Source: Methanomassiliicoccales archaeon (GTDB lineage Archaea; Thermoplasmatota; Thermoplasmata; GCA-020350865). From it: DNA of 44,867 nt. Made by a program: the position numbers and the translations under genes. The notes beneath the pieces are model-generated. The model did not search any database and was not told the DNA's origin. It was given only the letters and a program-made list of their open reading frames with translations. This document shows, one piece after another, positions 2,120 to 20,005 of the stretch (position 1 is the stretch's first letter; every line of letters begins with the position of its first letter). The DNA lies in NCBI GenBank assembly GCA_020347705.1, contig CP070739.1:2739174-2784040 (forward strand). Direction: 5' to 3'.

Positions 2120-3061
2120 TCAAAAAAGCAAATTGACTCCTGGTAATTCTAAACCTGCCATCCTTAAAACTATATCTGTGATCATGGCGATGCTGAAGAA
2201 CCAGAACCAACCTGCCGACTTGAAGAATGTATTAGCCCCAATTTTCGGATCTGGATTTTTTATTAGATTATCTGCAAGTATTATCAACAATATGGCTGCC
2301 AGGCCAGAGCCTATCATGTAAACGATTCCCAGGTTTGTAAAAAGGAAGATCATGATAGACATGAAAAGGACCAGTGTCCAACATGCGAAAATCAGCTTTG
2401 CCGTGGCTCTTATTCCGTATTTAACTGGAAGGGTGGGGATCCCCGTTTTTTTGTCCCCTTCGACATCCTTGCATACGCCGCTTAATGTGAATCCCGGTTC
2501 ATATAAGAAATACAGGATAAAGAGCATTATGGCTTCAAACGTTATCTGGTATGTATAGACAAAGAAAACACCCATGGGCATAAGGGCGGTGGCCAAGACC
2601 ACGAAGAAGTGGGAGAATGGGCTCTTATACTTCATCATGGAATACTGTAAGATACACAACATCTGTATGATTCCGATCATTCCGGTTAGGATGTTCAGAT
2701 AAAACAATATCGCAAGGGATGGGATGCCCAGTATTGCAGCGTAGGCCAAAAGGATACTCTTCTTTATTCCGTGGGTGACAGCTTTGTCTTTTCTTATCCC
2801 AGATGCAAAATCAAGGTCGGCATCGAAATAATCGTTTACAGCATAACCGGATGTAACCCCGAGATACGAACCCAGCATGATAAGGAGTAATTTTATGATA
2901 AAACTCTGATCTGCATGAAGAGGGGAAGAAAAGTCACCGTACTCAATGGATGCAAACAGCGCAATTGCGGCAACCCATGGGAGTGTGACGATACCGATAA
3001 TCGGTCTCATTGTGATTATGAGTCCTTTTATTTTTGAGGTTGCCAGATACATCAACTCCAA
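2120..3061 (-). CDS. UbiA-family prenyltransferase (DGGGP-synthase-like)
   Basis: 313 aa and polytopic. The first Asp-rich motif is NDYFDADLD. The second motif is KDVEGDKKTGIPTLPVKYG, typical of archaeal UbiA/DGGGPS enzymes. Confidence 0.8.
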   Translation of the reverse strand: MELMYLATSKIKGLIITMRPIIGIVTLPWVAAIALFASIEYGDFSSPLHADQSFIIKLLLIMLGSYLGVTSGYAVNDYFDADLDFASGIRKDKAVTHGIKKSILLAYAAILGIPSLAILFYLNILTGMIGIIQMLCILQYSMMKYKSPFSHFFVVLATALMPMGVFFVYTYQITFEAIMLFILYFLYEPGFTLSGVCKDVEGDKKTGIPTLPVKYGIRATAKLIFACWTLVLFMSIMIFLFTNLGIVYMIGSGLAAILLIILADNLIKNPDPKIGANTFFKSAGWFWFFSIAMITDIVLRMAGLELPGVNLLF

Positions 3062-4192: not shown

Positions 4193-5381
4193 CAGCGATA
4201 TCCATTACCTTCATTTTAAATTTTTCACCTTTCGCTTTGAGCTCCTCTTTCTTGGCCTCGACCCCAACGCTTATTTGAGCCTTACAGTTCGGACAGCTTG
4301 AGATTATGGTCTTTGCCCCCAGTTCGATGGCCTCATCGACCTTTCTTGCGGTTATTTTTGTTGTCAGATCATAATCAACTGCTTTTAAGCCCCCCCCTCC
4401 ACCGCAGCATACACTGTCCATCCTGTTGTTATTGTATTCCAGTATTGAATCCACACCCGGAACGCTGTTAAGAATGGTTCTAGGTTCGTCAAAGATGCCC
4501 CTTCCTTCCAATTCTGAGATCCTTCCCAGTTCACACGGATCGTGGTATACGAGGGGTAGGTTCTTTTTCTTGAATTCCTTTGAGAATTCGAGCTTCCCCT
4601 CGTTGATTAATCTTGCAATCAATTCTGTGGTATGAACCACTTCAAAATTCAATTTCCCAACGTATTTTTTGTACTTCTTCAAGGCCCGCAAACAGCCTGG
4701 ACAACCTGTTACCACGGTACTTGCTTTACGTTTTTCGATTTGGTCTACATTATGTTTAGCGATCTGTTTGAAATTATCGAATTGACCAGTCATTGCGTTT
4801 ATTGCACCACAACACATTTCATCCGTGCCTAGAGTGGTAAAATCAACCCCGGTTTTGGTAAGGACCTTCATCATGCTCAATAGGACCTGGTATTCATAAA
4901 ATGATGTCATGCAACCCGGAAAAAAAACGACTTCGGCCTGGGAGGGAAGTTTGTAATCATCCCTGTACCATTCGTCCCTTTTTGAGAGAGGTTCCATGAA
5001 GGGATTTTTAAATTCCTTGTTTTCGATATTTTTGTACATGTCCTTTGCGGCTTGGGGAGGACCGTAATCGTTTTCCACCAACCATTTCCTGGCCTCTTCC
5101 CAGAATTCATGGAATTCGATATCAACCTGACATAACGACTCACATCGACAACACAATGTACAGGTAAACATCTTCTGCATCCATTCATCCGTTATTTCGA
5201 TTTTCCGTCTCAGGATTCTATCCAAAAGGCCCTTTGAAGAGAGCTGTTTTAACCAGTACACTTTCCCCCTTGGGGTTAATGACTCCCATCCTGTTTCCCT
5301 GTACACGGGACAAACCGTTCTGCAGTATCCGCATTGGAGACATGCGTATACATCATTGATATTCGGTACCGCCATGGTCAT
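4170..5381 (-). CDS. (Fe-S)-binding oxidoreductase, GlcF/HdrD-like with two CCG domains
   Basis: 403 aa. It has two ferredoxin-type Cys clusters (CLQCGYCRTVCP, CTLCCRCESLCQ). It has two CCG motifs (MCCGAINA, CCGGGGGL). Confidence 0.8.
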   Translation of the reverse strand: MTMAVPNINDVYACLQCGYCRTVCPVYRETGWESLTPRGKVYWLKQLSSKGLLDRILRRKIEITDEWMQKMFTCTLCCRCESLCQVDIEFHEFWEEARKWLVENDYGPPQAAKDMYKNIENKEFKNPFMEPLSKRDEWYRDDYKLPSQAEVVFFPGCMTSFYEYQVLLSMMKVLTKTGVDFTTLGTDEMCCGAINAMTGQFDNFKQIAKHNVDQIEKRKASTVVTGCPGCLRALKKYKKYVGKLNFEVVHTTELIARLINEGKLEFSKEFKKKNLPLVYHDPCELGRISELEGRGIFDEPRTILNSVPGVDSILEYNNNRMDSVCCGGGGGLKAVDYDLTTKITARKVDEAIELGAKTIISSCPNCKAQISVGVEAKKEELKAKGEKFKMKVMDIADVVAKSL

Positions 5382-5385
5382 TGAA

Positions 5386-6954
5386 TCACTCAGTGTGGGG
5401 GTTTTGTATCACTTTCATTTTTGGCTTAATTCTCATACCAGGCAATCTTTTCATAAATGCCATCATATTCATTCCCAAGTTCATTCCAAAGGCGGGAATT
5501 GGGATCCCGAACCTGGTCATTCCTTCTGTTGTCTTCCCGGGATTCATGATATCATGAGGGTCCATCATGGATTTAACGCTCACCATCACGTTAGCTCCGT
5601 TTGCGTGCAATTTCTTCAAGTTCGAGGCAAAGAAAATACCCAGACCAGCCGGGCGCCCACCCGCTTTAAAGGCCAAATCTCCGATTTTCTTGATGAAGGA
5701 CATGGTCATCATGGATCTGAATTTTCTTTCGTCGGTCAGGCAATAGGGCATGAACGTAACAGTGTTTCTATCTGACACCATTCCCGTTATTGCCGCCCTC
5801 AATTTCATTCTCTTTATTACCTTCGATGAACCTGTGATCATCTCATGCATTTTTGAAACTGGGATCATCCCTTCTGCAAGCACGATGGTGGGTCCAAGTC
5901 TCTTTACTCTCATCTCAAAAAAGCGCTCCTCCCATTCATGATTAGACAATTTTTTGTCTTGTTTTTCTCCACCATGCCGCCTTGCGATTATGTCCAATGC
6001 GGCTTCCTCATGGTCCAATGACACCTTGGTCCCCTCCAGGGCAAGGACTATCATGGAGTCTATCTCAGGAGTCTCTTTGCCCATTTGCCTTAGAAAATCG
6101 AAATGATTTTTGTCAAAAAATGAAATGTGTAATGGCGTTATGGTAGAACGGGTGATATCAGATATAGCTTCACACATATCTTTTGTATTAAGGAAGGTGT
6201 ATGCTATCGGACGGATTTCTTCGGGGGCTGGGTAAATCCTTAAAGTGACTTTGGTAATAATTCCCAAAGTACCCTCTGACCCAGTAAAAAATAACCGTAG
6301 GTTGTCACCGAATGAACCTGATTTCACGTTGGGACTTCCGAAAGTAATGATCTCACCTTTGGGAAGGACCATCTCAAGGGCCAAGATCTGTTTTTCCACT
6401 CCCCCGTACTTATAGGAACCTACACCAACACCACCGGTGTTGATCCAACCTCCCACCGTAGCAGCGAGGGCGCTGCTGGGATATGCTCCAATCAAATAGC
6501 CTTTTCTCAGTAAGGCCCTGTATAAATCTGCCCAAGTTATACCAGGCTCCACAGTAACGGTGAGATTTTCTTCATCAATCTCGATAATGGAGCTCATCGT
6601 GGCCAAGTCCAATACGATTCCCCCCATTACAGGCACTGCGCCTCCCAAGGCCCAGGATGCACCTCCCCTTGGGATCACCGGTAATTGTTTTTCCACGGCA
6701 AGCTTGATTATCCGGGAAACCTCAAGCGCAGTTTTCGGTCTCACGACTGCATCTGGGAGCATCTTAAATCCCATCTCCATCATTTTTGGTAGAGGAGCCA
6801 AATCATGGCCATATAACCTTCGTTCAAGTGTTTCATCACTTACTCGGGATTCGCTAACTATTTTGGCCAACGATTCGAACAGCTCGGTATGGATTATCTC
6901 TGCAGTGTCATTTTCAATTTGATTTCTCTTTTCTGCACTTGCTTCTTCAGCCAT
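5386..6954 (-). CDS. FAD-linked oxidase, GlcD/D-lactate dehydrogenase-like (PCMH-type FAD domain)
   Basis: 522 aa. Motifs seen: VIPRGGASWALGGAVP, GGWINTGGVGVGSYKYG, GSEGTLGIITK. The stop lies 4 nt from the start of the Fe-S partner. Confidence 0.8.
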   Translation of the reverse strand: MAEEASAEKRNQIENDTAEIIHTELFESLAKIVSESRVSDETLERRLYGHDLAPLPKMMEMGFKMLPDAVVRPKTALEVSRIIKLAVEKQLPVIPRGGASWALGGAVPVMGGIVLDLATMSSIIEIDEENLTVTVEPGITWADLYRALLRKGYLIGAYPSSALAATVGGWINTGGVGVGSYKYGGVEKQILALEMVLPKGEIITFGSPNVKSGSFGDNLRLFFTGSEGTLGIITKVTLRIYPAPEEIRPIAYTFLNTKDMCEAISDITRSTITPLHISFFDKNHFDFLRQMGKETPEIDSMIVLALEGTKVSLDHEEAALDIIARRHGGEKQDKKLSNHEWEERFFEMRVKRLGPTIVLAEGMIPVSKMHEMITGSSKVIKRMKLRAAITGMVSDRNTVTFMPYCLTDERKFRSMMTMSFIKKIGDLAFKAGGRPAGLGIFFASNLKKLHANGANVMVSVKSMMDPHDIMNPGKTTEGMTRFGIPIPAFGMNLGMNMMAFMKRLPGMRIKPKMKVIQNPHTE

Positions 6955-7251: not shown

Positions 7252-8313
7252 TTAGCTAAATAATTTTAATCTCTTCAAATATTTTTCTGCTTTCTCTGGG
7301 CTTGAGAGAACCCTTTCTACAAAATCTACCTTTCTGAGCGAGGTCAAGCCATTCTTTTTTAACTTCTCGGTATATGAAGTTCCAAGAAACTTTAATTCGA
7401 ATCTTTGCTCCTTTATTGCCTGGATTATGACCTCTGCTGCGATTCTTCCGCTTTTCATGGCATAGAATATTCCCTCCCCAGTTCCAGGAAAAACGAAACC
7501 CCCTGCATCTCCCACCAAAATGGTCCTGTCAGCCGTCAATATATCAAAGGGGCCCCTCATCGGTATCAGGTGGGCCTCCGTCCTTACAATTTTCCCGTCC
7601 GAGATTTTCTCTTTTATATCTTTGCGCTTAAGAAACTCGTCGAGATTTTTCTTACAATTTTTCTTAAAACTCGGTGACAGACCGCCCACTCCGAGTTTCA
7701 CTGCATCTTTTAAAGGACTTATCCAGGCGTATCCGTATGGTATTGAGTAATACACTTCAAACCAATTCCCTATCATATCGTCAACTCTTTCTTTTGAAAG
7801 CGAGATTTCATATTGCATTGCCACCGCCATGTCCGATGATCTGTTTTTACCGCAATCGTTTATTCCGCTAATCTTTCTCACAACAGAATTAACACCATCC
7901 GCACCTACCACCAAGTTTGTACGAAAGGAGCCTCCTTTTCCCCCTACCTCCACAAATTCCTTTTTTATCTCATATCTTGAAACTCGAATCCGCTTGGGTT
8001 GGTTTTTTAATCTTTTTATAAGGAAATTATCGAACCTCTCTCTCCTGACGATCAACCCTCTTGTGGGAAAAGAAGACTGCACCATAGCACCTGAAGGTGA
8101 GAAAATGCGATATCCTTCCAAAGGTCTTTCCATGATGTTATCCGGAATTTCGAGCTCCGAATAAACTTTAGGCGGTATGACACCAGCACAGGGTTTAGTC
8201 CTTGGAAATTGTTCTTTGTCCAACAACGCAATCTTATAACCAGAGTTTTCCAGAACATAAGCTGTGGATGCTCCAGCAGGACCAGCACCGACGATTACTA
8301 CATCATACATCAC
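7252..8313 (-). CDS. Geranylgeranyl reductase family flavoprotein
   Basis: 353 aa. The N-terminal dinucleotide fold is YDVVIVGAGPAGASTA. KPCAGVIP and GDAGGFVFPGTGEGI motifs typical of archaeal GGR are present. Confidence 0.8.
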   Translation of the reverse strand: MMYDVVIVGAGPAGASTAYVLENSGYKIALLDKEQFPRTKPCAGVIPPKVYSELEIPDNIMERPLEGYRIFSPSGAMVQSSFPTRGLIVRRERFDNFLIKRLKNQPKRIRVSRYEIKKEFVEVGGKGGSFRTNLVVGADGVNSVVRKISGINDCGKNRSSDMAVAMQYEISLSKERVDDMIGNWFEVYYSIPYGYAWISPLKDAVKLGVGGLSPSFKKNCKKNLDEFLKRKDIKEKISDGKIVRTEAHLIPMRGPFDILTADRTILVGDAGGFVFPGTGEGIFYAMKSGRIAAEVIIQAIKEQRFELKFLGTSYTEKLKKNGLTSLRKVDFVERVLSSPEKAEKYLKRLKLFS

Positions 8314-8419: not shown

Positions 8420-9400
8420 ATGTTAGTGAAAAGTATTTGGACCGACATTGAAGAATTGCTTTCTCTATCCCTCGATTCTCTTTTGGAAAAGGCATGGGAC
8501 ATCAGAACGAAAAATTTCCCACATGCCCTAAATATATCTGTTCCGAGCGCCAAAACGTATATTACGGATCATTATAGAAATAAAAGAGATGTGTTTGTCA
8601 ACATTAGTGTCACTGGGGATAAATGTGCTTTGAACTGTGAGCACTGCAAGGGAAGGTTACTGGAATCGATGATACCTGCTCAGAATCCAAGCAAGTTAAA
8701 AGAAATTGGAGATGCCCTCATCGAAAAGGGTTGTAAAGGTATTCTAATAAGCGGTGGTGCATTGGCAGATGGTATGGTCCCCCTTGACGACTATATAGAA
8801 TCGATTTGGTATTTGAAGCAAAGGGGATTTAAGGTCATTGTTCATACCGGCCTTGTAAACGAGGACATCGCCAGGAAATTGAAGGCCGTGGATGTCGACC
8901 AAGTGCTTATAGACATCATAGGTGATAAAGAAACCATTAATAAGGTCTACCATCTTGATAAAGCACCCGAAGATTTTGAAAAATCGCTGGAAATATTAAA
9001 GGGTGCGGGCCTTGAGATCGCACCACATATCATAATAGGTCTGGACTTTGGAAGGATAACTGGTGAATATAACGCACTCCGCATGACCTCGGAATTTAAG
9101 CCAGAGGTGATCGTGCTGGTTATCCTATCTCCAATGTACGGAACCCCAATGTACGGCGTGAAAACCCCATCACCCGAAGATGTGGCCAAAATCGCCGCCA
9201 TTGCGAGAATAATCAATCCAAGAACAAGGATCACATTGGGCTGTGCAAGGCCCTCAGGCCCCCTAAAAATCGAAACAGAAAAACAGCTGATTAAAGCGGG
9301 TGTCAATTCTATAGCCTACCCAGCAGATGAGGCAATCGACTATGCACACGGTCTTGGGTTGAAGACGAATTTCAAAGAGGAATGCTGCTCTCTTTTATGA
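8420..9400 (+). CDS. Radical SAM protein (unassigned subfamily)
   Basis: 326 aa. A CX3CX2C cluster motif is present (CALNCEHCKG), followed by a Gly-rich ILISGGAL segment. The length is consistent with a TIM-barrel fold. Divergent from the GGR gene. Confidence 0.65.
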   Translation: MLVKSIWTDIEELLSLSLDSLLEKAWDIRTKNFPHALNISVPSAKTYITDHYRNKRDVFVNISVTGDKCALNCEHCKGRLLESMIPAQNPSKLKEIGDALIEKGCKGILISGGALADGMVPLDDYIESIWYLKQRGFKVIVHTGLVNEDIARKLKAVDVDQVLIDIIGDKETINKVYHLDKAPEDFEKSLEILKGAGLEIAPHIIIGLDFGRITGEYNALRMTSEFKPEVIVLVILSPMYGTPMYGVKTPSPEDVAKIAAIARIINPRTRITLGCARPSGPLKIETEKQLIKAGVNSIAYPADEAIDYAHGLGLKTNFKEECCSLL

Positions 9401-9547: not shown

Positions 9548-12175
9548 ATGATATTCGTTGAATCACTGCTCATTTTCGTCATTATTGCCTTAATTTGGAT
9601 GTTAGTAACGTTGGTCATATTTAAGAAACTGAACAAGGCGAGAATTAAAGGAGTAATCTTAATTCTTCTTGCTTTTGTCGCCGTTGCTGCTGTGATTTTC
9701 ATTTTAGGACACTTTCTTGAATGGCATGACACCAATGAGTTCTGCGGAACTTTCTGTCACTCTATGGACGGGCCATATGCCAGTTATACAAAACCTGATA
9801 ACAATACCTTCATGGAGACGCATTACAATCAGAGTGTCCATTGTGCACAATGTCATTCCGGGCCAGGATTGACGGGCCTTGGTAAATCGTTTTTAGTGGT
9901 TCCTAATGAGGGCCTGAAAGAATATATCCTAGGTTATGATGAGAACGATTTCGGTGGTCATGTTCCAGCTGAAAACTGTATAAAAGGCTGTCATCAGGAA
10001 GAAGGAGTGGACTGGAAATTCGAAGCTCCAAAACCCAAGGGTGAAGGATATTCCGAGGTCGATAGAGTCATGGTGTGGGAAAGACGAGAAATCTATCACC
10101 CATTAACAGAAAATGGAACGAATTTACATGAACTAAAAGAGCTGGATACCTGTCTTTCATGCCATGATCCTAGGCATAACAGTTTTGGTTTTACAGCAGA
10201 AGCATGTCCCATCTGCCATGATGTCGATGAAGAAGAACTGGAGCACCATGGTGAATCAACATGTGATATGGCAACTTGCCATAGAAATGAACAGGGTGAA
10301 CCTGTTCAACCCAAACTCACAGGGCACAACACAGTAACTGATCACTGTATGGAATGTCACTCAAGAAATCACCCTGGCGATGCTTTTGTTCCTTATATCA
10401 TCACCAATTCCGAGGGGAAGACCTTGAATATAAACAGCAGTTTCTGCAAAAACTGCCATCACGAAACCTACGAAGAGCTTGCTAATAACGGTTCCAAGCA
10501 TAATACTGATACTGACTGTACTGAATGTCATCTTGCGCACAAAACTCGACCTGACTGCCTCATGTGTCACGATCAGGAAAGCGGTATCGCACCTATTCAT
10601 AACGTTACAGAACCCTTTGATGAATGCGAGAGCTGTCACGAACACGGAGGTCATAATCCCAGGAAGATCAATTTCCAGACCCAGATTGAATCCGAGAACA
10701 GCGAGATAGTCTCAAAAGATTTCTGCAACAGCTGCCATGAAAGCGATATTTATGATACTTTTGTTGATGGCACCCTTCATACAAGAAAGGAGTTCACAGA
10801 GGACTGTCTCTCCTGCCATGATGCCCATGTGGCCGAAGTTGAATGTTCCAAGTGCCATATCTCAGGAGGTTTCGGAGGGTTGGCCGATTCACCGGATCAC
10901 AACATCACACAACCCTTTGATGATTGCATCAATTGCCATACCCATGGGCACACACCGAATAAATTGAATTTCACATCATTTGAAACCGCAAATGATTTCC
11001 TAATTGAGGACGACTTCTGCATTTACTGTCACGAAGGACAGACTGGGCAGCTCCAGAATTACGGGATGGGTCATGAATCCAATAACTGCTCCTCATGTCA
11101 CAAGACACATGATAAAGAGGAGGTAGACTGCCTCTCCTGTCATGGGGTCGATGACATCGCTTTCTTACCTTCCCACGAAACAGAATATCAATATGAGGAA
11201 TGTACAAACTGCCATGTATCAGGCCACGCCCCAAAAAATATTACATTCCCCGAGTCTGGACAGTTCGCTCTTGAAAAAGATTTTTGTGCTGCGGTGTCAT
11301 GTCATGATGGTACCGAAGGCCAGGTCTATCAACTCGAGAATTACGGTGCCTATCATAAAAATTACGACTGTAACTTTTGTCATAACATCCACATCTCTTA
11401 TGAACAGAAATTGACAGTGGATACATGTAACGATTGTCATAGTAAAACGCCCAAGGACCACCTGGGCCCTTACGATAACGATCAGTGTCTGGGATGCCAT
11501 AATTCTGCCCATGATCCCACGAATAGAGCTCTTCATCCAGGCTACAATCTTTCTCAACGAGACTATATGAGCGTATACTTTCAGGTAGACGAAAACTACA
11601 CAGCCAATAACTTTAACTGGACGAAAAGAGGAAATCACCCCGTGAGCGATGATTGCAGTGAATGTCACATAAGTCCCGAGGAGACGAGTTATCCGGCTGC
11701 TGCTTTGGGACTTATGAATGCGAGCGGGACCGACTGCAGTACAAGTTGTCATTCATGGATAGATCCGGTATCCACAGGTGACCCCTTTACGCTTCTCACT
11801 TCTGAGACCAAGTGGGGAAAGCACGCTGACTTGTTCGATAACGAGACTGATGGAGGTTGTGCTGGTTACTGCCATCAATCAGATCCCGAAAGCCCGGTGT
11901 TCGACGGATCAGGACACGGGGATATCGCTTTATGTCTCAATCAGGATTGCCATGGGTGGGGATTCGTTTCCGATAGTGGTGTGATTCATGAGAGGCACAA
12001 AGATTATCTGGGTGATCCAGGTTCGGGAACTGGATGCTGGGAGGTCTGCCATAAAACTGGCGTTTATTATGGGGCTCCGATAAATGGCGGTTGCTACGAT
12101 TGCCATAAAAGCGGACATGATCCCAGGATAATCGATGAATCACCCTGCTTCGAATGCCATGGTAATAACATGTAA
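9548..12175 (+). CDS. Membrane-anchored multiheme c-type cytochrome, 30 heme-binding motifs, NapC/NirT-like N-terminus
   Basis: I prefer ATG 9548 (AGGAGA 7 nt upstream) over the track's TTG at 9524. There are two N-terminal hydrophobic helices. I counted 22 CXXCH, 5 CX3CH and 3 CX4CH motifs. N-x-S/T sequons are numerous. Confidence 0.9.
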   Translation: MIFVESLLIFVIIALIWMLVTLVIFKKLNKARIKGVILILLAFVAVAAVIFILGHFLEWHDTNEFCGTFCHSMDGPYASYTKPDNNTFMETHYNQSVHCAQCHSGPGLTGLGKSFLVVPNEGLKEYILGYDENDFGGHVPAENCIKGCHQEEGVDWKFEAPKPKGEGYSEVDRVMVWERREIYHPLTENGTNLHELKELDTCLSCHDPRHNSFGFTAEACPICHDVDEEELEHHGESTCDMATCHRNEQGEPVQPKLTGHNTVTDHCMECHSRNHPGDAFVPYIITNSEGKTLNINSSFCKNCHHETYEELANNGSKHNTDTDCTECHLAHKTRPDCLMCHDQESGIAPIHNVTEPFDECESCHEHGGHNPRKINFQTQIESENSEIVSKDFCNSCHESDIYDTFVDGTLHTRKEFTEDCLSCHDAHVAEVECSKCHISGGFGGLADSPDHNITQPFDDCINCHTHGHTPNKLNFTSFETANDFLIEDDFCIYCHEGQTGQLQNYGMGHESNNCSSCHKTHDKEEVDCLSCHGVDDIAFLPSHETEYQYEECTNCHVSGHAPKNITFPESGQFALEKDFCAAVSCHDGTEGQVYQLENYGAYHKNYDCNFCHNIHISYEQKLTVDTCNDCHSKTPKDHLGPYDNDQCLGCHNSAHDPTNRALHPGYNLSQRDYMSVYFQVDENYTANNFNWTKRGNHPVSDDCSECHISPEETSYPAAALGLMNASGTDCSTSCHSWIDPVSTGDPFTLLTSETKWGKHADLFDNETDGGCAGYCHQSDPESPVFDGSGHGDIALCLNQDCHGWGFVSDSGVIHERHKDYLGDPGSGTGCWEVCHKTGVYYGAPINGGCYDCHKSGHDPRIIDESPCFECHGNNM

Positions 12176-12196
12176 TGACTATAATGGTGAAATGAA

Positions 12197-13018
12197 ATGA
12201 GATCCCAATCGGAAATAAAAAGATACGGGAAAATCGTGATCTTCGAGCATTGGCTCGGGATTTTGATAATTTTCATTTTAATGATCACCGGGTTATTCTT
12301 GGTAAGAGATTGGTTTATTTCAGAGTTTCAAATTTATGGTGCAGAAAATTATATTCCCACCCCATCATTCGCCCGTTCTTTTCATCTTTTTGCCGCATTT
12401 GGAATCCTTGTTTTGGGCGCAATACATCTGATGGCCCATGGGGGACAGAAGGAAAAGCCAATCCTGCCAAAAAACTCCATGGTAGAGCTAAAGGCGGGAT
12501 TATATTCCCTAATGTACCTTATCTTTTTAACTAAGAAGCAAGAGAGGGGAAGTGGAGAAAAATATCTTAAGAGCCAGAGAATCATCTATGCATTTACCAT
12601 TTACGTATTAGGGCTTGCAGCCATTACCGGATTCTTATATAAAAGCAATTTACTTGGAGAGCAGATGTTAATCGCCCACATAATTGCCGGGGTTCTTGTT
12701 TTACTGGTGGGGATTCATCGTTCCGCTCTTATTATCAGAAAAAGGGACAAGATAGCCTTAAGAAGCATTCTTGTCACGGGCACAATGCCTGAATGGTATA
12801 TAAAGAAGAATCACAGGGCTTGGTACGATGCATTAAAAGGTAGAGGTGTTACAGAACATAAAGAACCAAAAGGGCCAAAGGGCGGGATTAAGGAGCCCAA
12901 GAAAAAAGAACCTGAGAAAGTTGGAAAACCCAAGGAAGAAGGTAAAAAAACTGAGAAAGGAGAAATAGTAACCAATGAAAAACCTGTTCCCAGATCGCCA
13001 AAGCCCTCAGATAGCTGA
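12197..13018 (+). CDS. b-type cytochrome membrane subunit (FdnI / Ni-Fe hydrogenase cytochrome b-like)
   Basis: 273 aa, starting 21 nt after the cytochrome c stop. Four TM helices carry His at positions typical of di-heme b subunits: IFEHWLG in TM1, SFHLF...AIHLMAH in TM2, and IAHIIAG...GIHR in TM4. The C-terminal tail is rich in Lys, Glu and Pro. Confidence 0.65.
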   Translation: MRSQSEIKRYGKIVIFEHWLGILIIFILMITGLFLVRDWFISEFQIYGAENYIPTPSFARSFHLFAAFGILVLGAIHLMAHGGQKEKPILPKNSMVELKAGLYSLMYLIFLTKKQERGSGEKYLKSQRIIYAFTIYVLGLAAITGFLYKSNLLGEQMLIAHIIAGVLVLLVGIHRSALIIRKRDKIALRSILVTGTMPEWYIKKNHRAWYDALKGRGVTEHKEPKGPKGGIKEPKKKEPEKVGKPKEEGKKTEKGEIVTNEKPVPRSPKPSDS

Positions 13019-13076: not shown

Positions 13077-14162
13077 TCACCCACTTCCATGAGGCTGAAC
13101 TTCGAAAACCACGAAGGTGAATATTCCCATGAGGCAGTAGCATAATGCCAAAACTCCAATTGACAGCTTTGGATTTGGGGCCATCTCGGCCCTTTTCATG
13201 GCGAATTTACTCCAGCCAAATAGCTTTTTAAAATATTTGCTTCTCATTATCTGTGCTCTGTTAATATACATTGGAATGAACCACAATAAGAGCACAATGA
13301 AAGATACATTATCTGCGTTCGTCATATCAAATGCTTCGGGATTCCAGATGGCAGGAAAACCTGTCCAGGCCTTGTTCCACCCATAGAACATCCCTGCGAC
13401 CCACATTCCAATTGGCACAGAAGCTAAAAAAAACACGATAAAGGTGACGATCACCAATAAAAAGAGCAAAAGGGGTGGATTAAACAATCGCTCCATAAAG
13501 GAGGTAAAACCTTTTGGACTCTTAGATGTAATCCTCGTAAAAATAAATGCACCTGCGACAAGGCCTGTAATTAGAAACAGAAAGACGGAAGCAACCATTA
13601 AGGCAATATGGACCTTGAAGACAGGGGATTCTAAAACTGCTGCGACATTGGGAGGAGGTCCTCCACCGCCCATACTTTCGGTATAGGTGTAAGTGACATC
13701 CAAGTTCCAGCTGTTACCTGGATCCGCTTCCTCCTGTGTCACCAAACCGATGGGTCCTACTGGGACATTTGTAGGTCCTGCGGACTCGCATGTCGACACC
13801 ACATTCCAGGTGTTGTTCAGCATATCTTCCTCCCAGGAAACTGATATCTTACCGCTCGCACCCTGGTCGCTTTTTAGTTCATGCTCGCCGTCGTCTGTGG
13901 CAAGGCTGAAGGAGTCAGGTTCTGAATCCGAGCCTTCGTCGTCCTCCCATGTTAACTCGAATACGATATTGGTTAAAGAGACCTCTCCGAGGTTAACTTC
14001 CTTTTCCCAGGATGCTCCAACATCGCAATATCCATTGAAGGAAATAGTCTTCGTCTGCTCCTCTCCATCGCCGTGCGGGGGCTGTGCAGTTACACTGAGA
14101 TTCCCAATGGTTATCATTATAGTAATGATGAATATCGTAGCAATTTTGACTTTTTTTACCAT
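13077..14162 (-). CDS. Membrane protein: signal peptide, acidic extracellular domain, 4-TM module with a Trp-rich external loop (function unknown)
   Basis: 361 aa. The N-terminal signal/anchor is MVKKVKIATIFIITIMITIGNLSV. A roughly 150-aa acidic domain follows, then a GGGGPPP linker and four hydrophobic helices. The loop reads GWNKAWTGFPAIWNPEAF. Confidence 0.6.
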   Translation of the reverse strand: MVKKVKIATIFIITIMITIGNLSVTAQPPHGDGEEQTKTISFNGYCDVGASWEKEVNLGEVSLTNIVFELTWEDDEGSDSEPDSFSLATDDGEHELKSDQGASGKISVSWEEDMLNNTWNVVSTCESAGPTNVPVGPIGLVTQEEADPGNSWNLDVTYTYTESMGGGGPPPNVAAVLESPVFKVHIALMVASVFLFLITGLVAGAFIFTRITSKSPKGFTSFMERLFNPPLLLFLLVIVTFIVFFLASVPIGMWVAGMFYGWNKAWTGFPAIWNPEAFDMTNADNVSFIVLLLWFIPMYINRAQIMRSKYFKKLFGWSKFAMKRAEMAPNPKLSIGVLALCYCLMGIFTFVVFEVQPHGSG

Positions 14163-14294
14163 CTTATCATCAGGAATTTGATGTATCCTTTACTATCTTA
14201 TAAATCTTTCATTTAGCGGTTGATTTATTAGAAAACGCAAAATATAAGTAAACAGAGACTATACTTTCTCGGGTTAATAATGGAGGGACAGAAC

Positions 14295-15710
14295 ATGAGT
14301 TCTGATTTGTATAAAAAAATCAAAGACATCGTAGGTGAGGATTATGTTACAGAAAGCGAATTCGAGAGGTTCTTCTACAGTAGAGACGTCTCTCCTATTC
14401 CAACTGAATTACAGGAGAAATGGGGTACGGTTCCGGATATCGTCGCAAGGCCCAAAAACGCACAAGAGGTCTCCAAAATCATGGCCGTGGCCTCTCAAAA
14501 CAAGATCCCAATCATTCCACGGGGCGGCGCTAGCTGGTGGCTAGGAGGGTCTGTACCGTACAAGGGGGGCATCGTCTTAGACTTAACGAGTATGAATAAT
14601 CTGATAGATATGGATGAAAATAACCTTACGATCACCGTCGATTGCGGAGTAACATGGAAGGAAATCGAGGATGTACTGGAAAGGCATTCCTATTTTCTTG
14701 GAACGCGCCCGGGCAGTGCAGCTTCGGCCACCGTAGGAGGATGGATAAGCACTGGAGGAGTAGGGATAGGCTCTTACAAATACGGCTCTGTCGGGGATCT
14801 CGTGAGATCACTTGAAGTAGTGCTTCCCTCGGGTGAAATAATCCAAACCCAAAACAAGGATTTGGCAGGTCATGGCTCAGGATACAATCTGAACAGGCTG
14901 TTTATCGGGAGTGAGGGAACCCTTGGTGTGATAACCAAGGCCACATTAAAAATAATCCCGAGACACGAAGCGGGGCCGTACCATGTTTCGTATGCATTCT
15001 CTGAATTAAGTGGCTGTGCCGAGGCAATAAAGAAGGTGGTTTCAAGCAGGCTGTTGCCACATCATATAGCCTTTGGGGATAAAAGGCATTTTATGTTTCT
15101 TGCGTCCATGGGGAAACCCGTGCCAGACGGGGAGATTGTGCTCTGTATTACACTAGAAGGCGAGAAGGGGATCATCGACTATGGATTGAAGAAATTGGAC
15201 GAGGAATTCACATCGACAGGAGGATGTATGAAATGCTGCGACGGAAAGTCCCACGAAGAATGCGAGGAGTGCACAATTGAATTTAGGGGAAGTAGAATTA
15301 ATGTTTATCCCGTACCAGGTGAGATATTCGTAGGATTGAACAGGTTCGAAGAAGCCCTTTCTAAAATATACGATCTTTTCGACGAGATGGGCCTTCAAGC
15401 TGGAGTTATCGGTAGTATGGTAGATAGAAGAACTACGATGATCATGCCATACTATATCCAGGAGCAAAAGGAGAGCGGAACTTTCATGGAATTCCACAGA
15501 CGGTTGGGTGAGCTTGCTCTTTCGGTTGGTGGAAGAAGGGTTGGTTTGGGATTATTCTTTTCTTCAAGTCTTTCGCATATTCACGATGAGGGAAGCGTTG
15601 CAGTTATGCGTGCGATAAAAAGGTGCATCGATCCTGGCAACATCTTAAATCCTGGAAAGACTGTGGGTGGATTCGACTTATTTGCCAGCTTGAATGACAA
15701 AAAAGGCTAG
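14295..15710 (+). CDS. FAD-linked oxidase, GlcD-like
   Basis: Motifs seen: IIPRGGASWWLGGSVP, GGWISTGGVGIGSYKYG, GSEGTLGVITK. I prefer ATG 14295 (GGAGGG 6 nt upstream) over 14280. A Cys-rich insertion is present (GGCMKCCDGKSHEECEEC). Confidence 0.8.
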   Translation: MSSDLYKKIKDIVGEDYVTESEFERFFYSRDVSPIPTELQEKWGTVPDIVARPKNAQEVSKIMAVASQNKIPIIPRGGASWWLGGSVPYKGGIVLDLTSMNNLIDMDENNLTITVDCGVTWKEIEDVLERHSYFLGTRPGSAASATVGGWISTGGVGIGSYKYGSVGDLVRSLEVVLPSGEIIQTQNKDLAGHGSGYNLNRLFIGSEGTLGVITKATLKIIPRHEAGPYHVSYAFSELSGCAEAIKKVVSSRLLPHHIAFGDKRHFMFLASMGKPVPDGEIVLCITLEGEKGIIDYGLKKLDEEFTSTGGCMKCCDGKSHEECEECTIEFRGSRINVYPVPGEIFVGLNRFEEALSKIYDLFDEMGLQAGVIGSMVDRRTTMIMPYYIQEQKESGTFMEFHRRLGELALSVGGRRVGLGLFFSSSLSHIHDEGSVAVMRAIKRCIDPGNILNPGKTVGGFDLFASLNDKKG

Positions 15711-15719: not shown

Positions 15720-16874
15720 ATGACCAAGATTCCTGATATCGAGGAGGATTTGTTGGCATGTATTCAATGCGGGTACTGCAACGCTGTATGTCCTACCTAT
15801 GAGGAGTTCAAGTGGGAATCCGCATCCCCAAGGGGCAAAATATATTTTCTAAAACGCTTTTATTTTTTAAATATCATCGAGAAGTTCATCAAAAACCATG
15901 AATATAAACAAGGATTTGTGAAAAGCTTGTACATCTGTGCGGGCTGCGGGGCTTGTAACAAGATATGCCCTGTAAGAATAGAACTTTCACACAGGTGGGA
16001 GGAACTGAAAGAGTGGCTTTTCTTTGAGGGGTATGCGCCCATGGAGAATCATAAACCTCTTCTGGAAAGAGTCAGGGGTGTAAAAAATCCGTATAATGAG
16101 CCCATCCCAAATAGAACCAATTGGGTTCCTGAGGATGTGAAACTATCTACCAATCCAGAAATACTGTACTTTGTCGGTTGTACCGAATCGTACCGAAGAC
16201 AAGAGATAGCCTCTGCCACCGCCAGAATATTGCAGAAGGCCGATGTTGAATTTACGATCTTGGGAACTTTCGAGCAATGCTGTGGCTCCCCGCTTCTGAG
16301 GACAGGTCAAACAGATATAGTGAAAGAGGTGCTCATGCCCCAGAATATCGAGAACATGAAGAAGGTTGGAATTGAAACCGTGGTTACCGCCTGCTCGGGT
16401 TGCTTTCAAACCTTAACTAATGATTATCCCAGGGTTCTTGGCCCACTTCCCTTTGAGGTCCTGCATATATCCCAATATATAAAACGCCTATTAGATGAGG
16501 AGAAAATCCAGTTCGAAAAAGAATTTGAAAAAAAGGTTACCTATCATGATCCGTGCCATCTCGGTCGCCATGTCGGAGTTTTTGAAGAGCCGCGAAGATT
16601 GCTTACCGCAGTACCAGGTGTGGAGTTCGTTGAGATGCCGAGAAATCGCATGGGCTCAAGATGCTGCGGTGCAGGGGGAGGTTTCAAAATCGCATTCAAC
16701 GATAAGGCCACAGTCATTGCTTCAAAGAGAGTCAAAGAGGCCGTGGATACAGAAGCTGAGTGCATAATTACAACCTGCCCCTTCTGTAAGACCAACTTAA
16801 CGCACGGGGCAGAGATTATGGAAAATGGGATCCCCACCTATGATTTAATGGAACTTGTATTGAAAGTACTTTGA
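15720..16874 (+). CDS. (Fe-S)-binding oxidoreductase, GlcF/HdrD-like with two CCG domains
   Basis: 384 aa. Motifs seen: CIQCGYCNAVCP, CAGCGACNKICP, QCCGSPL, RCCGAGGGF. Confidence 0.8.
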   Translation: MTKIPDIEEDLLACIQCGYCNAVCPTYEEFKWESASPRGKIYFLKRFYFLNIIEKFIKNHEYKQGFVKSLYICAGCGACNKICPVRIELSHRWEELKEWLFFEGYAPMENHKPLLERVRGVKNPYNEPIPNRTNWVPEDVKLSTNPEILYFVGCTESYRRQEIASATARILQKADVEFTILGTFEQCCGSPLLRTGQTDIVKEVLMPQNIENMKKVGIETVVTACSGCFQTLTNDYPRVLGPLPFEVLHISQYIKRLLDEEKIQFEKEFEKKVTYHDPCHLGRHVGVFEEPRRLLTAVPGVEFVEMPRNRMGSRCCGAGGGFKIAFNDKATVIASKRVKEAVDTEAECIITTCPFCKTNLTHGAEIMENGIPTYDLMELVLKVL

Positions 16875-16978
16875 AAATAACAACAGTCTTTTTCCAAAAA
16901 CATAACACCGTTAAGTTTAAACACGACGATGTCATTCTCGTTGATATATGATTAAAAGACCAATTGGGGGGCTATTAT

Positions 16979-18304
16979 ATGGCTAAAGGTAACGATGATT
17001 TGGATAAAATTATTTCTAAAATCGTTAAGATAGTTGGCGGTTCTAACGCTGAAATCGATCCCAAGGCACCTAATAGAGCTATTGTAAGACCAAGAACTAG
17101 TGATGATGTCTGCAGAATAGTAAAGATCGCATTAAAAGAGGGTGTTCCCATCGTTCCAAATAGACATTTAATATGGGCAGTGGAGGATAAATATAGCGAT
17201 GAACATCTATTGATAAATACCCTTGATATGAATGGAATTTTCAAAATCGATGAAGAGAATTTGGCCGTAACCGTGGGACCAGGAGTTTTATGGAAGGATC
17301 TATATAAAGCACTTTTGAAAAGGGGATATTTAATAGGTGCCTATCCATTTTCTTCGATACCTACCGTTGGGGAATGGGTGGATACAGGCGGTGGGGGCAT
17401 TGGTTCTTACGGCAAAGGTTTTGCAGGGGATCAGGTCAGAACCTTGGAGGTTGTACTCCCTGATGGTAAAGTCATAAACACAGGATTCGAAAAGGTACTT
17501 TCAAACAGCTCAGGTTATAACCTCAATGGATTGTTTATTGGTGCAGAAAGCACCCTGGGAATAATCACCAAAATCACACTTAAGATATTTCCCAAGCCAG
17601 AAGAAACTCGACCTCTGTATTACACATTTTCTGAGCTAAAAGATACCACCGAAGCCCTGCGAGCCCTCACCAAAATAAAGACAACACCCATGAACATATC
17701 GTTCTTCAGCGCAAATCATCTTCAATCTTTGAAGATGTTTCGTAAGGATATTCCAGATCTCAAGGGTGTCGTAATGAATGTAACTTTAACAGGCCTAAGA
17801 TCTGTAGTAGATCACGAGGAGGAAAACATCGATGCGATAATGAAAGGGCACAACGCAATAAAGGTGAGCAGCGATATTGCCAAGGTCCTATGGAGGGAAC
17901 GATTCTTTGAGGTACCATCCACTCGGGCCGGGATTAGACCTGTTTTTTTCGAGGCCTTAATTCCTGCATCCAAGCTCTATGAGATGGCAAACGGTACCTA
18001 CTCCCTCATTGGTAAAATTAAGCAAAAGGCAGCTATCATAGGAATACTTTGTGACAGAAGTACGGTCCTCTTGATACCATATCTATTATCCGAGAAATCA
18101 TCCACCAAAAAATCGAGGATGCCAGCGGTTTTTGCACAAAAGTATGGGGAGTTGGTTGTCAAACACGGGGGAAGACCTATTGGTACGACGATGTCCTTGA
18201 TCTCAGGTATAAAACAGGTCAATGGTGAGGAATTAAACACCATTCTGGATATCAAATCCGCAATAGATCCTCATGACATAATGAATCCTTACAGATTTAT
18301 TTGA
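16979..18304 (+). CDS. FAD-linked-oxidase-like protein with a degenerate FAD motif (GlcE-like)
   Basis: It appears by eye to share domain order and several motif positions with the two GlcD-like proteins (GEWVDTGGGGIGSYGKG, GAESTLGIITK). The PRGGASW segment is replaced by VPNRHLIWAV. I prefer ATG 16979 (GGGGGG upstream) over the TTG at 16964. Confidence 0.65.
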   Translation: MAKGNDDLDKIISKIVKIVGGSNAEIDPKAPNRAIVRPRTSDDVCRIVKIALKEGVPIVPNRHLIWAVEDKYSDEHLLINTLDMNGIFKIDEENLAVTVGPGVLWKDLYKALLKRGYLIGAYPFSSIPTVGEWVDTGGGGIGSYGKGFAGDQVRTLEVVLPDGKVINTGFEKVLSNSSGYNLNGLFIGAESTLGIITKITLKIFPKPEETRPLYYTFSELKDTTEALRALTKIKTTPMNISFFSANHLQSLKMFRKDIPDLKGVVMNVTLTGLRSVVDHEEENIDAIMKGHNAIKVSSDIAKVLWRERFFEVPSTRAGIRPVFFEALIPASKLYEMANGTYSLIGKIKQKAAIIGILCDRSTVLLIPYLLSEKSSTKKSRMPAVFAQKYGELVVKHGGRPIGTTMSLISGIKQVNGEELNTILDIKSAIDPHDIMNPYRFI

Positions 18305-18370: not shown

Positions 18371-20005
18371 ATGGTAATGCCTAAAGGGAATTTCTTTAAA
18401 ATTACATCGGGATGGCTGGTTCTCCTGATGGTATTTATTATTTTTATCCAACTTAATACCGAAAATTCCAGTGCAGATCCTTTCTTGTACAGGCATCATG
18501 TAATCATGATCCAGGGGAATGATCCCGATACTGCAGAAATAGAACCTGGAAACGAGATGTTGGCAATAGAGCGTTTCTTTTTATTGGTACCTTGGAATGA
18601 GTCCTTCGTCGATTTGCCCGTTCCATTGGCCATGAAGATAGGCAGTCAAGATATTGATCATGTAGGTTACAGTGATATGTTTGGATATGTCCCAGGGCAG
18701 TACAGTCTCTACATGAACCCCGGCGATTCACCATATAAGGAGTTCAGGAATATGGAGGATATGACCTGCTGCATTGCACACAGCTTTGTTTGGGGTTTTC
18801 CCAAGGGTGCGGATAGAAACCAATCACAAGATATTCACCTGGACACAGGTTCTGCGTTTAAAGAGAATATGGATGATTCCAGATCAATTGATGTTTGGAA
18901 TTTTTCTGAAGATACCATGAAATTGAAAATGGGGGAATATTCTGGTGAATATATTTCTACGGCCACTAAGATGGGTGCTCATATACCGAAAGTGGAAATC
19001 GACTGGAATATTTCGATGCACAAGGAGAATGTCACTTTTTTGATATCTAACAACAATGGAACGAATTGGTTGGATATGACATCACACAAAGGCGAGGAGG
19101 TGAACTTTTCGGTTCAGGGCAACGAGCTGATATGGAAAATTAACATGACGCAAAACATAACATTGAACAATACACCTGTTTTGACTGATCTTTGGATCAA
19201 TGTGACTTATACCCCAATGTACTCAGACATCATTCTTCAACTCGATTATGTCCTTGAAAGAAAATCGGATAAGTTCGAGTTCACGATGGACCTGTATAAG
19301 GATTACGATGATGGTGTGGTACCACATATTCTGATATATACCGATAAGGACCATATCGTTGAGTCCGAAGATATTCCACTTACCCTATATGGATCTCAAT
19401 CAGAATATCCTGGTAAGGATGTATATATCTTTATGGCGGGATCCTTTTCGCCTGAGGCGGCGATTACGGTTCAAAAGGTTGAAGAGGAATCCCAAATATC
19501 CTGGCTTTTAATTTTCCCTCTAATATTGATCATAATATTTGTTGGTGCATTTTTAATGGGAAGGGCAAGAAAAAGGGAGATGACCAAATCAGCAGAGGGT
19601 CAAACAGCTACAGCGGACAACGGGGATATGGAGGAACTCGCTCGGAAAAAGGAAGGACTTCTTACGGCCTTAAAAGAGCTGGACAGCGACTTTGAGGAGG
19701 GCAACTTGGACGAGGATATTTACAACGAGCTAAGAAGCACATATAAAAAGAAAGCTGCAGAGGTGATGAGCCAAATGGATGCATTAACCGCAGCTGCCGT
19801 CCCCTCGGCCAAGGAACCGGAAGAACCAGAAATATCAGACGAAAGAAAAACTTTGTTGTCAAAGAAGAAGAAGATCTTAAAGAGCATTAAAAAGCTTGAT
19901 TCGGATTACAAAGATGGAATACTCGATGAGGACGTGTATAAAGAATTGAGGCAAAGCTACAAGGAGAAAGCTGTTGAGGTGATGAAGGAACTGGAAGGCA
20001 ACTGA
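18371..20005 (+). CDS. Type I membrane glycoprotein-like protein with a duplicated cytoplasmic helical motif
   Basis: 544 aa. It has an N-terminal hydrophobic signal and a roughly 350-aa ectodomain rich in N-x-S/T. A single TM helix is present (ISWLLIFPLILIIIFVGAFLMG). Two copies of a roughly 45-aa motif follow (L..LD.D...G.LDEDxY.ELR..YK.KA.EVM). Confidence 0.6.
   Translation: MVMPKGNFFKITSGWLVLLMVFIIFIQLNTENSSADPFLYRHHVIMIQGNDPDTAEIEPGNEMLAIERFFLLVPWNESFVDLPVPLAMKIGSQDIDHVGYSDMFGYVPGQYSLYMNPGDSPYKEFRNMEDMTCCIAHSFVWGFPKGADRNQSQDIHLDTGSAFKENMDDSRSIDVWNFSEDTMKLKMGEYSGEYISTATKMGAHIPKVEIDWNISMHKENVTFLISNNNGTNWLDMTSHKGEEVNFSVQGNELIWKINMTQNITLNNTPVLTDLWINVTYTPMYSDIILQLDYVLERKSDKFEFTMDLYKDYDDGVVPHILIYTDKDHIVESEDIPLTLYGSQSEYPGKDVYIFMAGSFSPEAAITVQKVEEESQISWLLIFPLILIIIFVGAFLMGRARKREMTKSAEGQTATADNGDMEELARKKEGLLTALKELDSDFEEGNLDEDIYNELRSTYKKKAAEVMSQMDALTAAAVPSAKEPEEPEISDERKTLLSKKKKILKSIKKLDSDYKDGILDEDVYKELRQSYKEKAVEVMKELEGN

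Follow-up and report, generated by a model that had tools for sequence, protein, structure and literature searches.

A 30-heme cytochrome with a NapC/NirT-derived head and an FdnI-type cytochrome b partner: a candidate outward electron conduit in a Thermoplasmata archaeon

How an archaeon of the Thermoplasmata might pass electrons from its membrane to the outside of the cell is the question raised by two adjacent genes on contig CP070739.1 of a Methanomassiliicoccales archaeon (GenBank assembly GCA_020347705.1), where a c-type cytochrome of 875 amino acids (aa) with 30 heme motifs is followed on the same strand by a b-type cytochrome. The stretch analysed, hereafter the window, comprises 44,867 nucleotides (positions 2,739,174 to 2,784,040 of the forward strand); coordinates are counted from its first letter and are compiled in Table 1. 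An earlier note, made from the sequence alone, had read the larger protein as a membrane-carrier:cytochrome oxidoreductase fused to a long heme wire and, with its partner, as a candidate electron conduit to the cell exterior. The note had named three outcomes that would speak against it (an N-terminus that fails to align with NapC/NirT profiles, a downstream protein unlike b-type cytochromes, and lack of synteny in relatives); all three were checked, and none was found. This interpretation is supported here at the level of homology and synteny, from which we infer the conduit itself: the pair fairly likely provides the membrane part and the extracellular part of a module for extracellular electron transfer (EET) in an archaeon, with electrons moving outward.

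The larger protein contains exactly 60 Cys, all of them within 30 C(X2-4)CH motifs (22 CXXCH, five CX3CH, and three CX4CH), whereas 2000 shuffled versions of the protein contained 0.31 CXXCH on average and three at most. Concerning the start of the gene, an in-frame TTG at 9524 upstream of the ATG would add 8 aa, but is unlikely to be used because the homologues begin at a conserved MIFVE. Open reading frame, motif count, and hydropathy confirm the earlier description of a protein of about 875 aa with two N-terminal hydrophobic helices and 30 Cys...Cys-His motifs, and the segment quoted there as reminiscent of NapC/NirT/NrfH, WHDTNEFCGTFCHSM...THYNQSVHCAQCH, is found at residues 59-103. The two transmembrane (TM) helices are separated by the loop KKLNKARIKG, which contains 5 K/R; following the positive-inside rule, this loop is therefore cytoplasmic, and the heme domain of about 820 residues lies outside. 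Attachment of c-type heme requires the heme domain to be on the outer side of the membrane. The two-helix anchor is kept in most long-wire relatives, and the extramembrane part possesses one heme per 27 residues, a density typical of heme wires.

Close relatives of this cytochrome are rare. Among 5.8 billion proteins, 18 were found (49-63% identity), and every one of these that carries an organism label stems from a Thermoplasmata archaeon, most of the 18 being metagenome proteins; a scan of one genome per GTDB species yielded three homologues, all in metagenome-assembled genomes of Thermoplasmata. The conservation figures given for this protein refer to 14 full-length homologues with 53-63% identity. 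Across these, 28 of the 30 heme motifs are invariant, heme 3 is near-invariant, and heme 6 is absent from four. Outside the motifs, 30 His are invariant or near-invariant and are therefore sufficient for bis-His ligation of essentially every heme.

Concerning the N-terminal part, the Pfam model of the NapC/NirT family taken alone is marginal: the 875-aa protein reaches 23.8 bits against PF03264, 0.3 short of the gathering cut-off of 24.1 (E=4.1e-5), and the match extends no further than the helix and hemes 1-2 (positions 4-73 of the 174 in the profile), while several homologues and protein P0065 pass the model in precomputed or other hits. A head profile (A2; residues 1-226, 12 homologues), searched against 1.84 billion representative proteins, retrieved 92 proteins at E<=0.001, and 64 of the 84 scanned among them are PF03264 members. 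When this profile was aligned by hhalign to 21 short proteins that pass PF03264, a probability of 99.8% was obtained over 167 columns, running from the second TM helix (TM2) through all four hemes in order, with the optional fifth heme also in register. As the 21 proteins had been found with the head profile itself, the E-value of this comparison is not independent, whereas their Pfam membership is. A PDB search with the N-terminal head profile gave no match at E<=10. By these comparisons, the head qualifies as a true but divergent NapC/NirT homologue by descent.

Like NrfH, CymA, and NapC, the head consists of a TM helix and four hemes in the same order, and it has in common with them the EFC..CH-x-M at heme 1, the His preceding heme 2, the CH-xGPG-xxG after heme 2, and the NC-x-CH (NC-K-CH) of heme 3. 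Unlike them, it possesses an extra, more N-terminal TM helix, one additional residue in hemes 1 and 3 (CX3CH), and an insertion of about 35 residues before heme 4, and it is fused to 26 further hemes and paired with a cytochrome b. Heme 1 has the form CX3CH-x-Met73, in which Met73, at the place of the Met ligand of NrfH heme 1, is invariant (14/14); among the homologues the motif is CX3CH or CX4CH, not CXXCH. A further difference concerns the quinol site. Lys K82 of NrfH binds menaquinol and 2-heptyl-4-hydroxyquinoline N-oxide (HQNO), and K91 is essential in CymA (PMC2762525); at this position, 12 residues behind the His of heme 2, the head carries Phe115, which is invariant in all 14 close homologues. 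Lys is present at the same position in 25 of 44 short NapC/NirT proteins, but in only three of 40 relatives with at least seven hemes. Because the quinol-site Lys has been replaced by an invariant Phe, catalysis by the head as a NapC-like quinol dehydrogenase is doubtful. Of the oxidoreductase proposed in the earlier note, the descent from NapC/NirT thus stands, whereas the catalytic role of the head does not find such support.

Behind the head, hemes 8-23 belong to four tandem tetraheme units with 29-40% pairwise identity (MAFFT), each with four heme motifs and four extra conserved His, and their repetition is confirmed by out-of-register tblastn matches with E-values down to 7e-14. Derivation of these units from duplicated NapC modules was also considered and is unsupported, as hhalign aligned just 14 columns around one heme motif. 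Residues 623-779, which reach into the C-terminal seven-heme region, match PF22113 (MtrC/MtrF domain II/IV) with 50.5 bits (cut-off 30); this is weak evidence because the model matches many unrelated multiheme proteins as well. A PDB search with the whole-protein profile gave weak matches to c7, NrfH, and NapB within the repeat region. Relatives with the two-helix, CX3CH-x-M head possess between 5 and 49 heme motifs, and those confirmed in the common gene context between 13 and 38, such that length is clearly a variable trait of the wire family. Variation of heme number within one gene context is expected of a spacer or wire, not of a catalytic site. Known heme wires extend by roughly 1 nm per heme, and 30 hemes in line would reach 20-30 nm.

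The stop of the multiheme gene at 12175 is followed by the next ATG at 12197, with a GGTGA Shine-Dalgarno-like motif in the gap of 21 nt. In agreement with the earlier note, which had seen a His-rich, b-type cytochrome gene with four TM helices at this distance on the same strand, the encoded 273-aa protein has four hydrophobic helices and 8 His and passes PF01292 with 42.8 bits (cut-off 30.1; residues 9-183 aligned to positions 1-167 of the 179 in the profile). A PDB search with this single sequence revealed nothing significant; the link to FdnI needed profile comparison. Aligned by hhalign to Escherichia coli FdnI (sequence identical to 1KQF chain C), a profile of 20 cytochrome b sequences reached 95.5% probability over 174 columns. 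The heme ligands of FdnI in 1KQF are H18, H57, H155, and H169. The columns of the first three are occupied exactly by H18, H63, and H161, all of them invariant, whereas H174 misses the column of H169 by one residue and is present in 16 of the 20 sequences, the other four (a distant subgroup, 41% identical) possessing Tyr. Invariant in this set are H18, H63, H77, H81, H161, and H206, of which H77 or H81 might stand in for H174 as ligand. The C-terminal W-KK-H-WY helix of FdnI is kept as well. A docking or carrier site is suggested by the near-invariance of the cytoplasmic loop 81-128.

Despite the common four-helix and putatively diheme architecture, the protein differs from FdnI in the displaced fourth ligand, in its partner, which is the Fe-S subunit FdnH in FdnI and a multiheme c cytochrome with two TM helices here, and in a long basic tail. 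Equivalog tests for hydrogenase and formate dehydrogenase cytochromes were negative (TIGR02125, 28 bits vs. 121.5; TIGR01583, 15.7 vs. 115.9), and no hydrogenase or formate dehydrogenase genes adjoin the cytochrome b gene. The tail (residues ~215-273) is a Lys/Pro/Glu-rich region of low complexity that is present in most close homologues with varying sequence; its match to histone H1 in the PDB is at chance level.

The association of the two genes is conserved, as was found in related loci (numbered with the prefix L). Of 16 related multiheme genes with readable flanks, 15 have a cytochrome b homologue behind them on the same strand, mostly at a distance of -4 to 26 nt, and one subgroup carries the b domain inside a longer protein. 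A search started from the distant, 41% identical cytochrome b led to the same arrangement, in an operon with a 13-heme gene (L094, L095). The order in the operon of these distant relatives is multiheme cytochrome, cytochrome b, FAD_binding_4 dehydrogenase, HdrD-like CCG protein, UbiA, CcmA-B-C-(D)-E, and C552/C554-type cytochrome, and the start of the dehydrogenase gene overlaps the stop of cytochrome b. In L009, L011, L012, L094, and L095, the dehydrogenase and CCG genes belong to the operon of cytochrome b and either overlap or directly adjoin its gene, and the Ccm genes share one operon with the pair in L009, L094, and L095. In the window, orthologues of every component of the distant operon are present, spread over about 28 kb: the FAD_binding_4 dehydrogenase, the CCG protein, and the adjacent UbiA of the minus strand (5386-6954, 4170-5381, and 3176-4192) are the orthologues of the genes that directly follow cytochrome b there (tblastn, 50-67% in L009, L012, L015, L017, L094, and L095). 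About 70 ordinary bacterial NapC/NirT loci, retrieved in a metagenome scan and used as a negative control, lack these neighbours, cytochrome b and FAD_binding_4 genes included, and the association is therefore specific to the long-wire family.

Two variations of this gene context were observed. At least one UbiA gene accompanies the unit of multiheme cytochrome, cytochrome b, dehydrogenase, and CCG protein in nearly all relatives, with three in L012. Locus L011 (7001-15441) contains two multiheme-cytochrome b pairs with 25 and 16 hemes, each with its own FAD_binding_4 gene and in mirrored order (multiheme, cytochrome b, dehydrogenase, then dehydrogenase, multiheme, cytochrome b).

In the outward module favoured here, the FdnI-type cytochrome b and the two TM helices of the 875-aa cytochrome would form one membrane complex, with the two b hemes stacked across the membrane. 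Electrons would originate from the soluble FAD/CCG dehydrogenases encoded alongside and would be delivered either by a prenylated membrane carrier, proposed because UbiA genes adjoin, or by direct docking on the conserved cytoplasmic face of cytochrome b. The b hemes would hand them over to the NapC/NirT-derived head, which they would enter at heme 1 on the outer face of the membrane. A chain of about 30 c hemes, close to each other and mostly with bis-His ligation, would then lead them outward by hopping to their final acceptor, either an extracellular one (Fe/Mn oxides, humics, or a partner cell) or the neighbouring surface-anchored 707-aa cytochrome. Among the points in favour are the Ccm maturation genes, the second surface-anchored cytochrome, and the ADP-forming acetyl-CoA synthetase in the window. 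The membrane carrier is probably handled by cytochrome b and not by the NapC-derived head, as the head has lost the quinol-site Lys and gained an FdnI-type partner; carrier chemistry at a cytochrome b may be likened to Geobacter CbcL, in which a b module is fused to a heme c domain (PMC6295460). The UbiA enzymes of the window could make such a carrier; the equivalog models for heme O synthase, MqnP, DGGGP synthase, and ChlG all score weakly on the two.

Several points weigh against this module. Its function, localisation and activity included, is a plausible prediction from sequence. Homology to FdnI/HydC gives no direction, and the characterised enzymes run inward, reducing quinone. The fourth b-heme ligand is off register and is Tyr in the distant subgroup, and with Met73 of heme 1 invariant, a carrier site may still exist in the head. 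Apart from UbiA and a geranylgeranyl-reductase-family protein, the window showed nothing of a pathway for carrier biosynthesis, none of the donor dehydrogenases scores above the cut-off of an NCBIfam equivalog, and the 38-heme relative L013, situated on a short contig, has no adjacent cytochrome b. Finally, AF2 modelling of the full 875-aa cytochrome (14-sequence alignment, no cofactors) gave an unusable model (mean pLDDT 33.9, pTM 0.17), such that the heme chain, in its continuity and length, is a predicted one.

A sub-variant of this model with different energetics, which we regard as rather unlikely, does not need quinone. The FAD dehydrogenase and the HdrD-like CCG protein would dock on cytochrome b as their membrane anchor, and the wire would receive electrons directly via the b hemes, the cytoplasmic donor being a 2-hydroxyacid or a dithiol such as a lipoyl-GcvH-like protein, similar to HdrE-HdrD and TmcC/HmcE-TmcB/HmcF. 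The five operons in which the dehydrogenase and CCG genes overlap or abut cytochrome b are in line with this, as is the unusual conservation of loop 81-128 and of the C-terminal helix. Neither TM helices nor signal peptides were found in the dehydrogenase proteins; the CCG proteins among them are soluble and score on the TmcB, HmcF, DsrK, and TfrB models, in all cases far below the equivalog cut-offs. Furthermore, six relatives possess in the same stretch a GcvH/LbpA-like lipoyl-carrier gene with conserved lipoyl-Lys (L005 4669-5115, L006 7012-7452, L010 7309-7770, also L014, L015, and L017), together with LipS1 and the geranylgeranyl-reductase-family protein between the modules. However, the GcvH-like gene is absent from the window, where the dehydrogenases are situated on other transcription units, and the UbiA genes of the operon suggest a prenylated carrier. 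GlcDEF- and GlpABC-type CCG enzymes, moreover, normally reduce quinone directly, and outward electrons through a diheme b, with protons left inside, would dissipate the membrane potential. Formulated more widely, and with a comparably low chance of being correct, the pair would be the outer arm of a self-contained quinone-independent respiratory machine, in which cytochrome b wires an FAD/CCG dehydrogenase into a single-polypeptide heme nanowire, a lipoylated GcvH-like carrier is a possible substrate, and the length of the wire (13-49 hemes) is tuned by duplication of tetraheme units. If true, the wire would span the envelopes of different Thermoplasmata, and no outer-membrane or S-layer conduit would be needed.

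Operation in the opposite direction appears improbable. The wire would collect electrons from Fe(II) minerals, a cathode, or a partner, and cytochrome b would pass them from its outer to its inner heme and reduce a carrier cytoplasmically, generating membrane potential. This is the direction of every characterised FdnI/HydC enzyme, the ligand pattern and C-terminal motif of which are conserved here, and NapC/NirT proteins can act as quinone reductases, as proposed for CymA/ImoA homologues in Fe(II) oxidisers (PMC6295460). The neighbourhood, however, consists of substrate-oxidising dehydrogenases and an ATP-yielding acetyl-CoA synthetase, a terminal oxidase or reductase for a carrier-consuming chain was not seen in the window, and reduction of a menaquinone-type carrier from Fe(II) combined with the building of a potential would be thermodynamically poor. 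The acetyl-CoA synthetase gene would fit an organotroph that forms acetate, gains ATP by substrate-level phosphorylation, and has to dispose of electrons.

The second multiheme cytochrome of the window, with 707 aa, possesses six CXXCH and two CXXCK-like motifs (CNGCKH, CARCKS), a signal anchor, a CarboxypepD_reg Ig-like domain, an acidic linker, and a C-terminal TM anchor. Its best solved relatives, to which it is weakly similar, are PDB 6QVM and 6I5B, presumably cytochromes with which Gram-positive bacteria reduce metals at their surface. In L094 and L095, a homologous gene is the last of the operon, and the first CXXCK-like motif is a plain CXXCH there. The 707-aa cytochrome is a possible partner or terminal reductase of the conduit. 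NapC/NirT proteins classically feed dedicated reductases. That the head and cytochrome b oxidise a carrier to feed this protein as an NrfA/OcwA-like reductase of nitrite, sulfite, or another oxyanion, with the extra hemes as a storage or distribution hub, has nevertheless only a slight probability: the C552/C554-type gene at the operon end (11 kb away in the window) and the best scores of the window heme lyase on NrfE models are in its favour, whereas the plain CXXCH of the relatives leaves no conserved NrfA-type active-site signature, the solved relatives are presumably the metal-reducing cytochromes described above, and a donor to a single enzyme would not need 13-49 hemes.

The outward module shares features with several known systems. 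In Desulfovibrio Hmc/Tmc and Methanosarcina HdrDE, electrons cross the membrane by way of a membrane cytochrome b and an HdrD-like CCG protein on the cytoplasmic side, Hmc/Tmc additionally possessing an external multiheme cytochrome. The scores of the present CCG proteins on the TmcB/HmcF models recall these systems, with the distance from the equivalog cut-offs mentioned above; the differences from Hmc/Tmc/HdrDE lie in the FdnI-type cytochrome b, in the additional FAD_binding_4 dehydrogenase, and in the complex, which here is a predicted one.

CymA, ImcH, and CbcL are bacterial EET quinol-oxidase families, for which a survey of 2018 found homologues only in Bacteria (PMC6295460). The likeness to the Geobacter proteins is architectural: ImcH combines several TM helices and a partly NapC/NirT-like head with extra hemes, and CbcL possesses a HydC/FdnI-type diheme b module fused to a multiheme c domain (PMC6295460). 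The present pair combines both ideas, but its b module is encoded by a separate gene, its c module is NapC-derived, and 30 hemes are present instead of 7 or 9; unlike Geobacter, the archaeal host has no outer membrane or periplasmic relay. In the anaerobic methanotrophic archaea (ANME) of group ANME-2, Mco clusters encode a VhtC-type cytochrome b and 7- or 11-heme cytochromes, proposed to act as a carrier:cytochrome c oxidoreductase that starts EET (PMC9012536). The likeness is again architectural, an archaeal PF01292-type b recruited from hydrogenase/formate dehydrogenase being clustered with multiheme cytochromes in both. Whereas Mco is found in Methanosarcinales, the present pair belongs to Thermoplasmata and is distinguished by a single 30-heme NapC-headed polypeptide and by the operon link to FAD/CCG dehydrogenases and UbiA; its carrier is presumably a quinone instead of methanophenazine, and the function of Mco itself is only proposed. 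By its published description, GAH_01256 of Geoglobus ahangari is a putative decaheme NapC/NirT cytochrome proposed as quinol oxidase for Fe(III) reduction (PMC8280799). It thus shares an archaeal NapC/NirT-type head and extra hemes with the present protein, but has 10 hemes compared to 30, and that description reports no pairing with a cytochrome b (PMC8280799).

New are the joining of a NapC-derived head with an FdnI-type b and a single-polypeptide wire of 13-49 hemes, the operon link to FAD/CCG dehydrogenases and UbiA, and the Thermoplasmata host. The earlier statement that such a protein is unusual for archaea holds for its rarity (the 18 close homologues), whereas the concept has precedents in the Geoglobus decaheme NapC/NirT and in ANME Mco. 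A limited check of the literature on multiheme cytochromes or EET in Thermoplasmata, Thermoplasmatota, and Thermoprofundales, in which the protein family itself was not searched, found no such module. Models usually present sediment Thermoplasmata as fermenters, heterotrophs, or methyl-reducers; if their respiration can indeed discharge electrons to minerals, humics, or partner cells, their role in models of anoxic carbon and metal cycling would change. The entry step of archaeal EET rests on proposals only (ANME Mco and the Geoglobus NapC-like decaheme); the present family provides a compact, testable candidate for it. With 30 hemes in about 820 residues, it is also attractive for structures of long-range electron transfer and for bioelectronic engineering.

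Table 1. Features of the window around the multiheme-cytochrome b pair, with coordinates, strand, and basis of assignment
Feature	Position	Strand	Basis
Two UbiA prenyltransferases	3176-4192 and 2120-3061	-	Pfam, NCBIfam
CCG Fe-S protein	4170-5381	-	Pfam, NCBIfam
FAD_binding_4 dehydrogenase	5386-6954	-	Pfam, NCBIfam
Geranylgeranyl-reductase-family flavoprotein	7252-8313	-	TIGR02032, 230 bits vs. 158.8
LipS1-type radical-SAM lipoyl synthase	8420-9400	+	NF053742, 242 bits vs. 230
30-heme membrane-anchored c-type cytochrome, 875 aa	9548-12175	+	ATG start; all Cys in heme motifs
Two N-terminal TM helices (residues ~3-25 and ~34-56) with cytoplasmic K/R-rich loop between	9554-9715	+	hydropathy 3.25 and 3.28
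NapC/NirT-derived head (residues 29-225), TM2 and hemes 1-4(5)	9632-10222	+	PF03264, hhalign
Four tandem tetraheme units (hemes 8-23, residues 292-661)	10421-11530	+	MAFFT, tblastn
C-terminal seven-heme region (hemes 24-30), four of them CX3-4CH	11531-12172	+	overlaps PF22113 match
FdnI/HydC-type four-helix, putatively diheme cytochrome b, 273 aa	12197-13018	+	PF01292, hhalign to 1KQF_C
361-aa membrane protein, convergent with cytochrome b gene	13077-14162	-	conserved in all close relatives
GlcD-like FAD dehydrogenase	14280-15710	+	Pfam, NCBIfam
HdrD/GlcF-like CCG Fe-S protein	15720-16874	+	Pfam, NCBIfam
Second FAD_binding_4 protein	16964-18304	+	Pfam, NCBIfam
544-aa protein, no family match	18371-20005	+	conserved
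CcmF/NrfE-type heme lyase	20471-22546	+	PF01578, TIGR00353
Lrp/AsnC-type proteins beside Ccm genes	22732-23250 and 26298-26846	+	one weak NirD/L-like helix-turn-helix match
Second multiheme cytochrome, 707 aa	23351-25474	-	C554/C552-like domain
CcmE, CcmC, CcmB, CcmA (System I maturation)	26852-29558	-	Pfam
ADP-forming acetyl-CoA synthetase (ATP-grasp_5, Succ_CoA_lig, CoA_binding), adjoining Ccm genes	29761-31890	+	domain matches

Concerning the remaining genes, the genes of the geranylgeranyl-reductase-family protein and of LipS1 are situated immediately upstream of the multiheme gene, a position kept in L001-L006 and L017. LipS1, the GcvH/LbpA-like genes of the relatives, and the Hdr-like CCG genes recall the sHdr-LbpA-LipS1/S2-LipT gene sets (PMC10332631). 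Downstream of the pair, the GlcD-like dehydrogenase, the CCG protein, and the second FAD_binding_4 protein form a GlcDFE-like set of soluble dehydrogenases, which is colinear in L001, L002, L005, L006, and L007.

The 361-aa protein consists of a signal anchor, a beta-sandwich ectodomain, and four TM helices (AF2 pLDDT 82), and carries a WWD-like loop, YGWxxAWTGFPAxWNPE, flanked by the near-invariant H185 and the invariant H358 on the outer face. Matches of its family to PF01578 stay below threshold and concern 11 of 36 members (best 25.1 bits vs. 29.9, 1.6e-5, profile positions 57-154); its comparison with the CcmC of the window by hhalign gave 0.2%, and Foldseek matched only the beta-sandwich domain and no CcsA or CcmC. 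The protein occurs only beside the closest relatives with about 30 hemes, not across the wider CX3CH-head family, and may be a heme-handling protein dedicated to the eight non-canonical CX3-4CH sites.

The 544-aa protein possesses a signal anchor, a large ectodomain, one C-terminal TM helix, and twice a cytoplasmic coiled-coil motif (LDSDxxxGxLDEDxYxELRxxYKxKAxEVM). Its gene follows the GlcD-CCG-GlcD set colinearly in L001, L005, and L006, and a 30%-identical gene is found near the multiheme gene of L009. A relationship to the cytochrome-b-containing 561-aa protein of L010 was considered and rejected, as no similarity exists between the two.

The heme lyase gene is colinear in L005 and L006 and situated nearby in L011, L014, and L015. 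The two Lrp/AsnC-type proteins could be siroheme decarboxylase subunits or ordinary regulators. In L011, clear NirDL-like (AhbA/B-type) genes and a radical SAM/SPASM protein are found beside CcmF, and in L002 and L010 a full GlutR-ALAD-GSAM-PBGD-UroM/S operon for heme precursors flanks the multiheme gene. Genes for ribosomal protein S19e and eIF-6, likewise present in the window, show the host to be archaeal.

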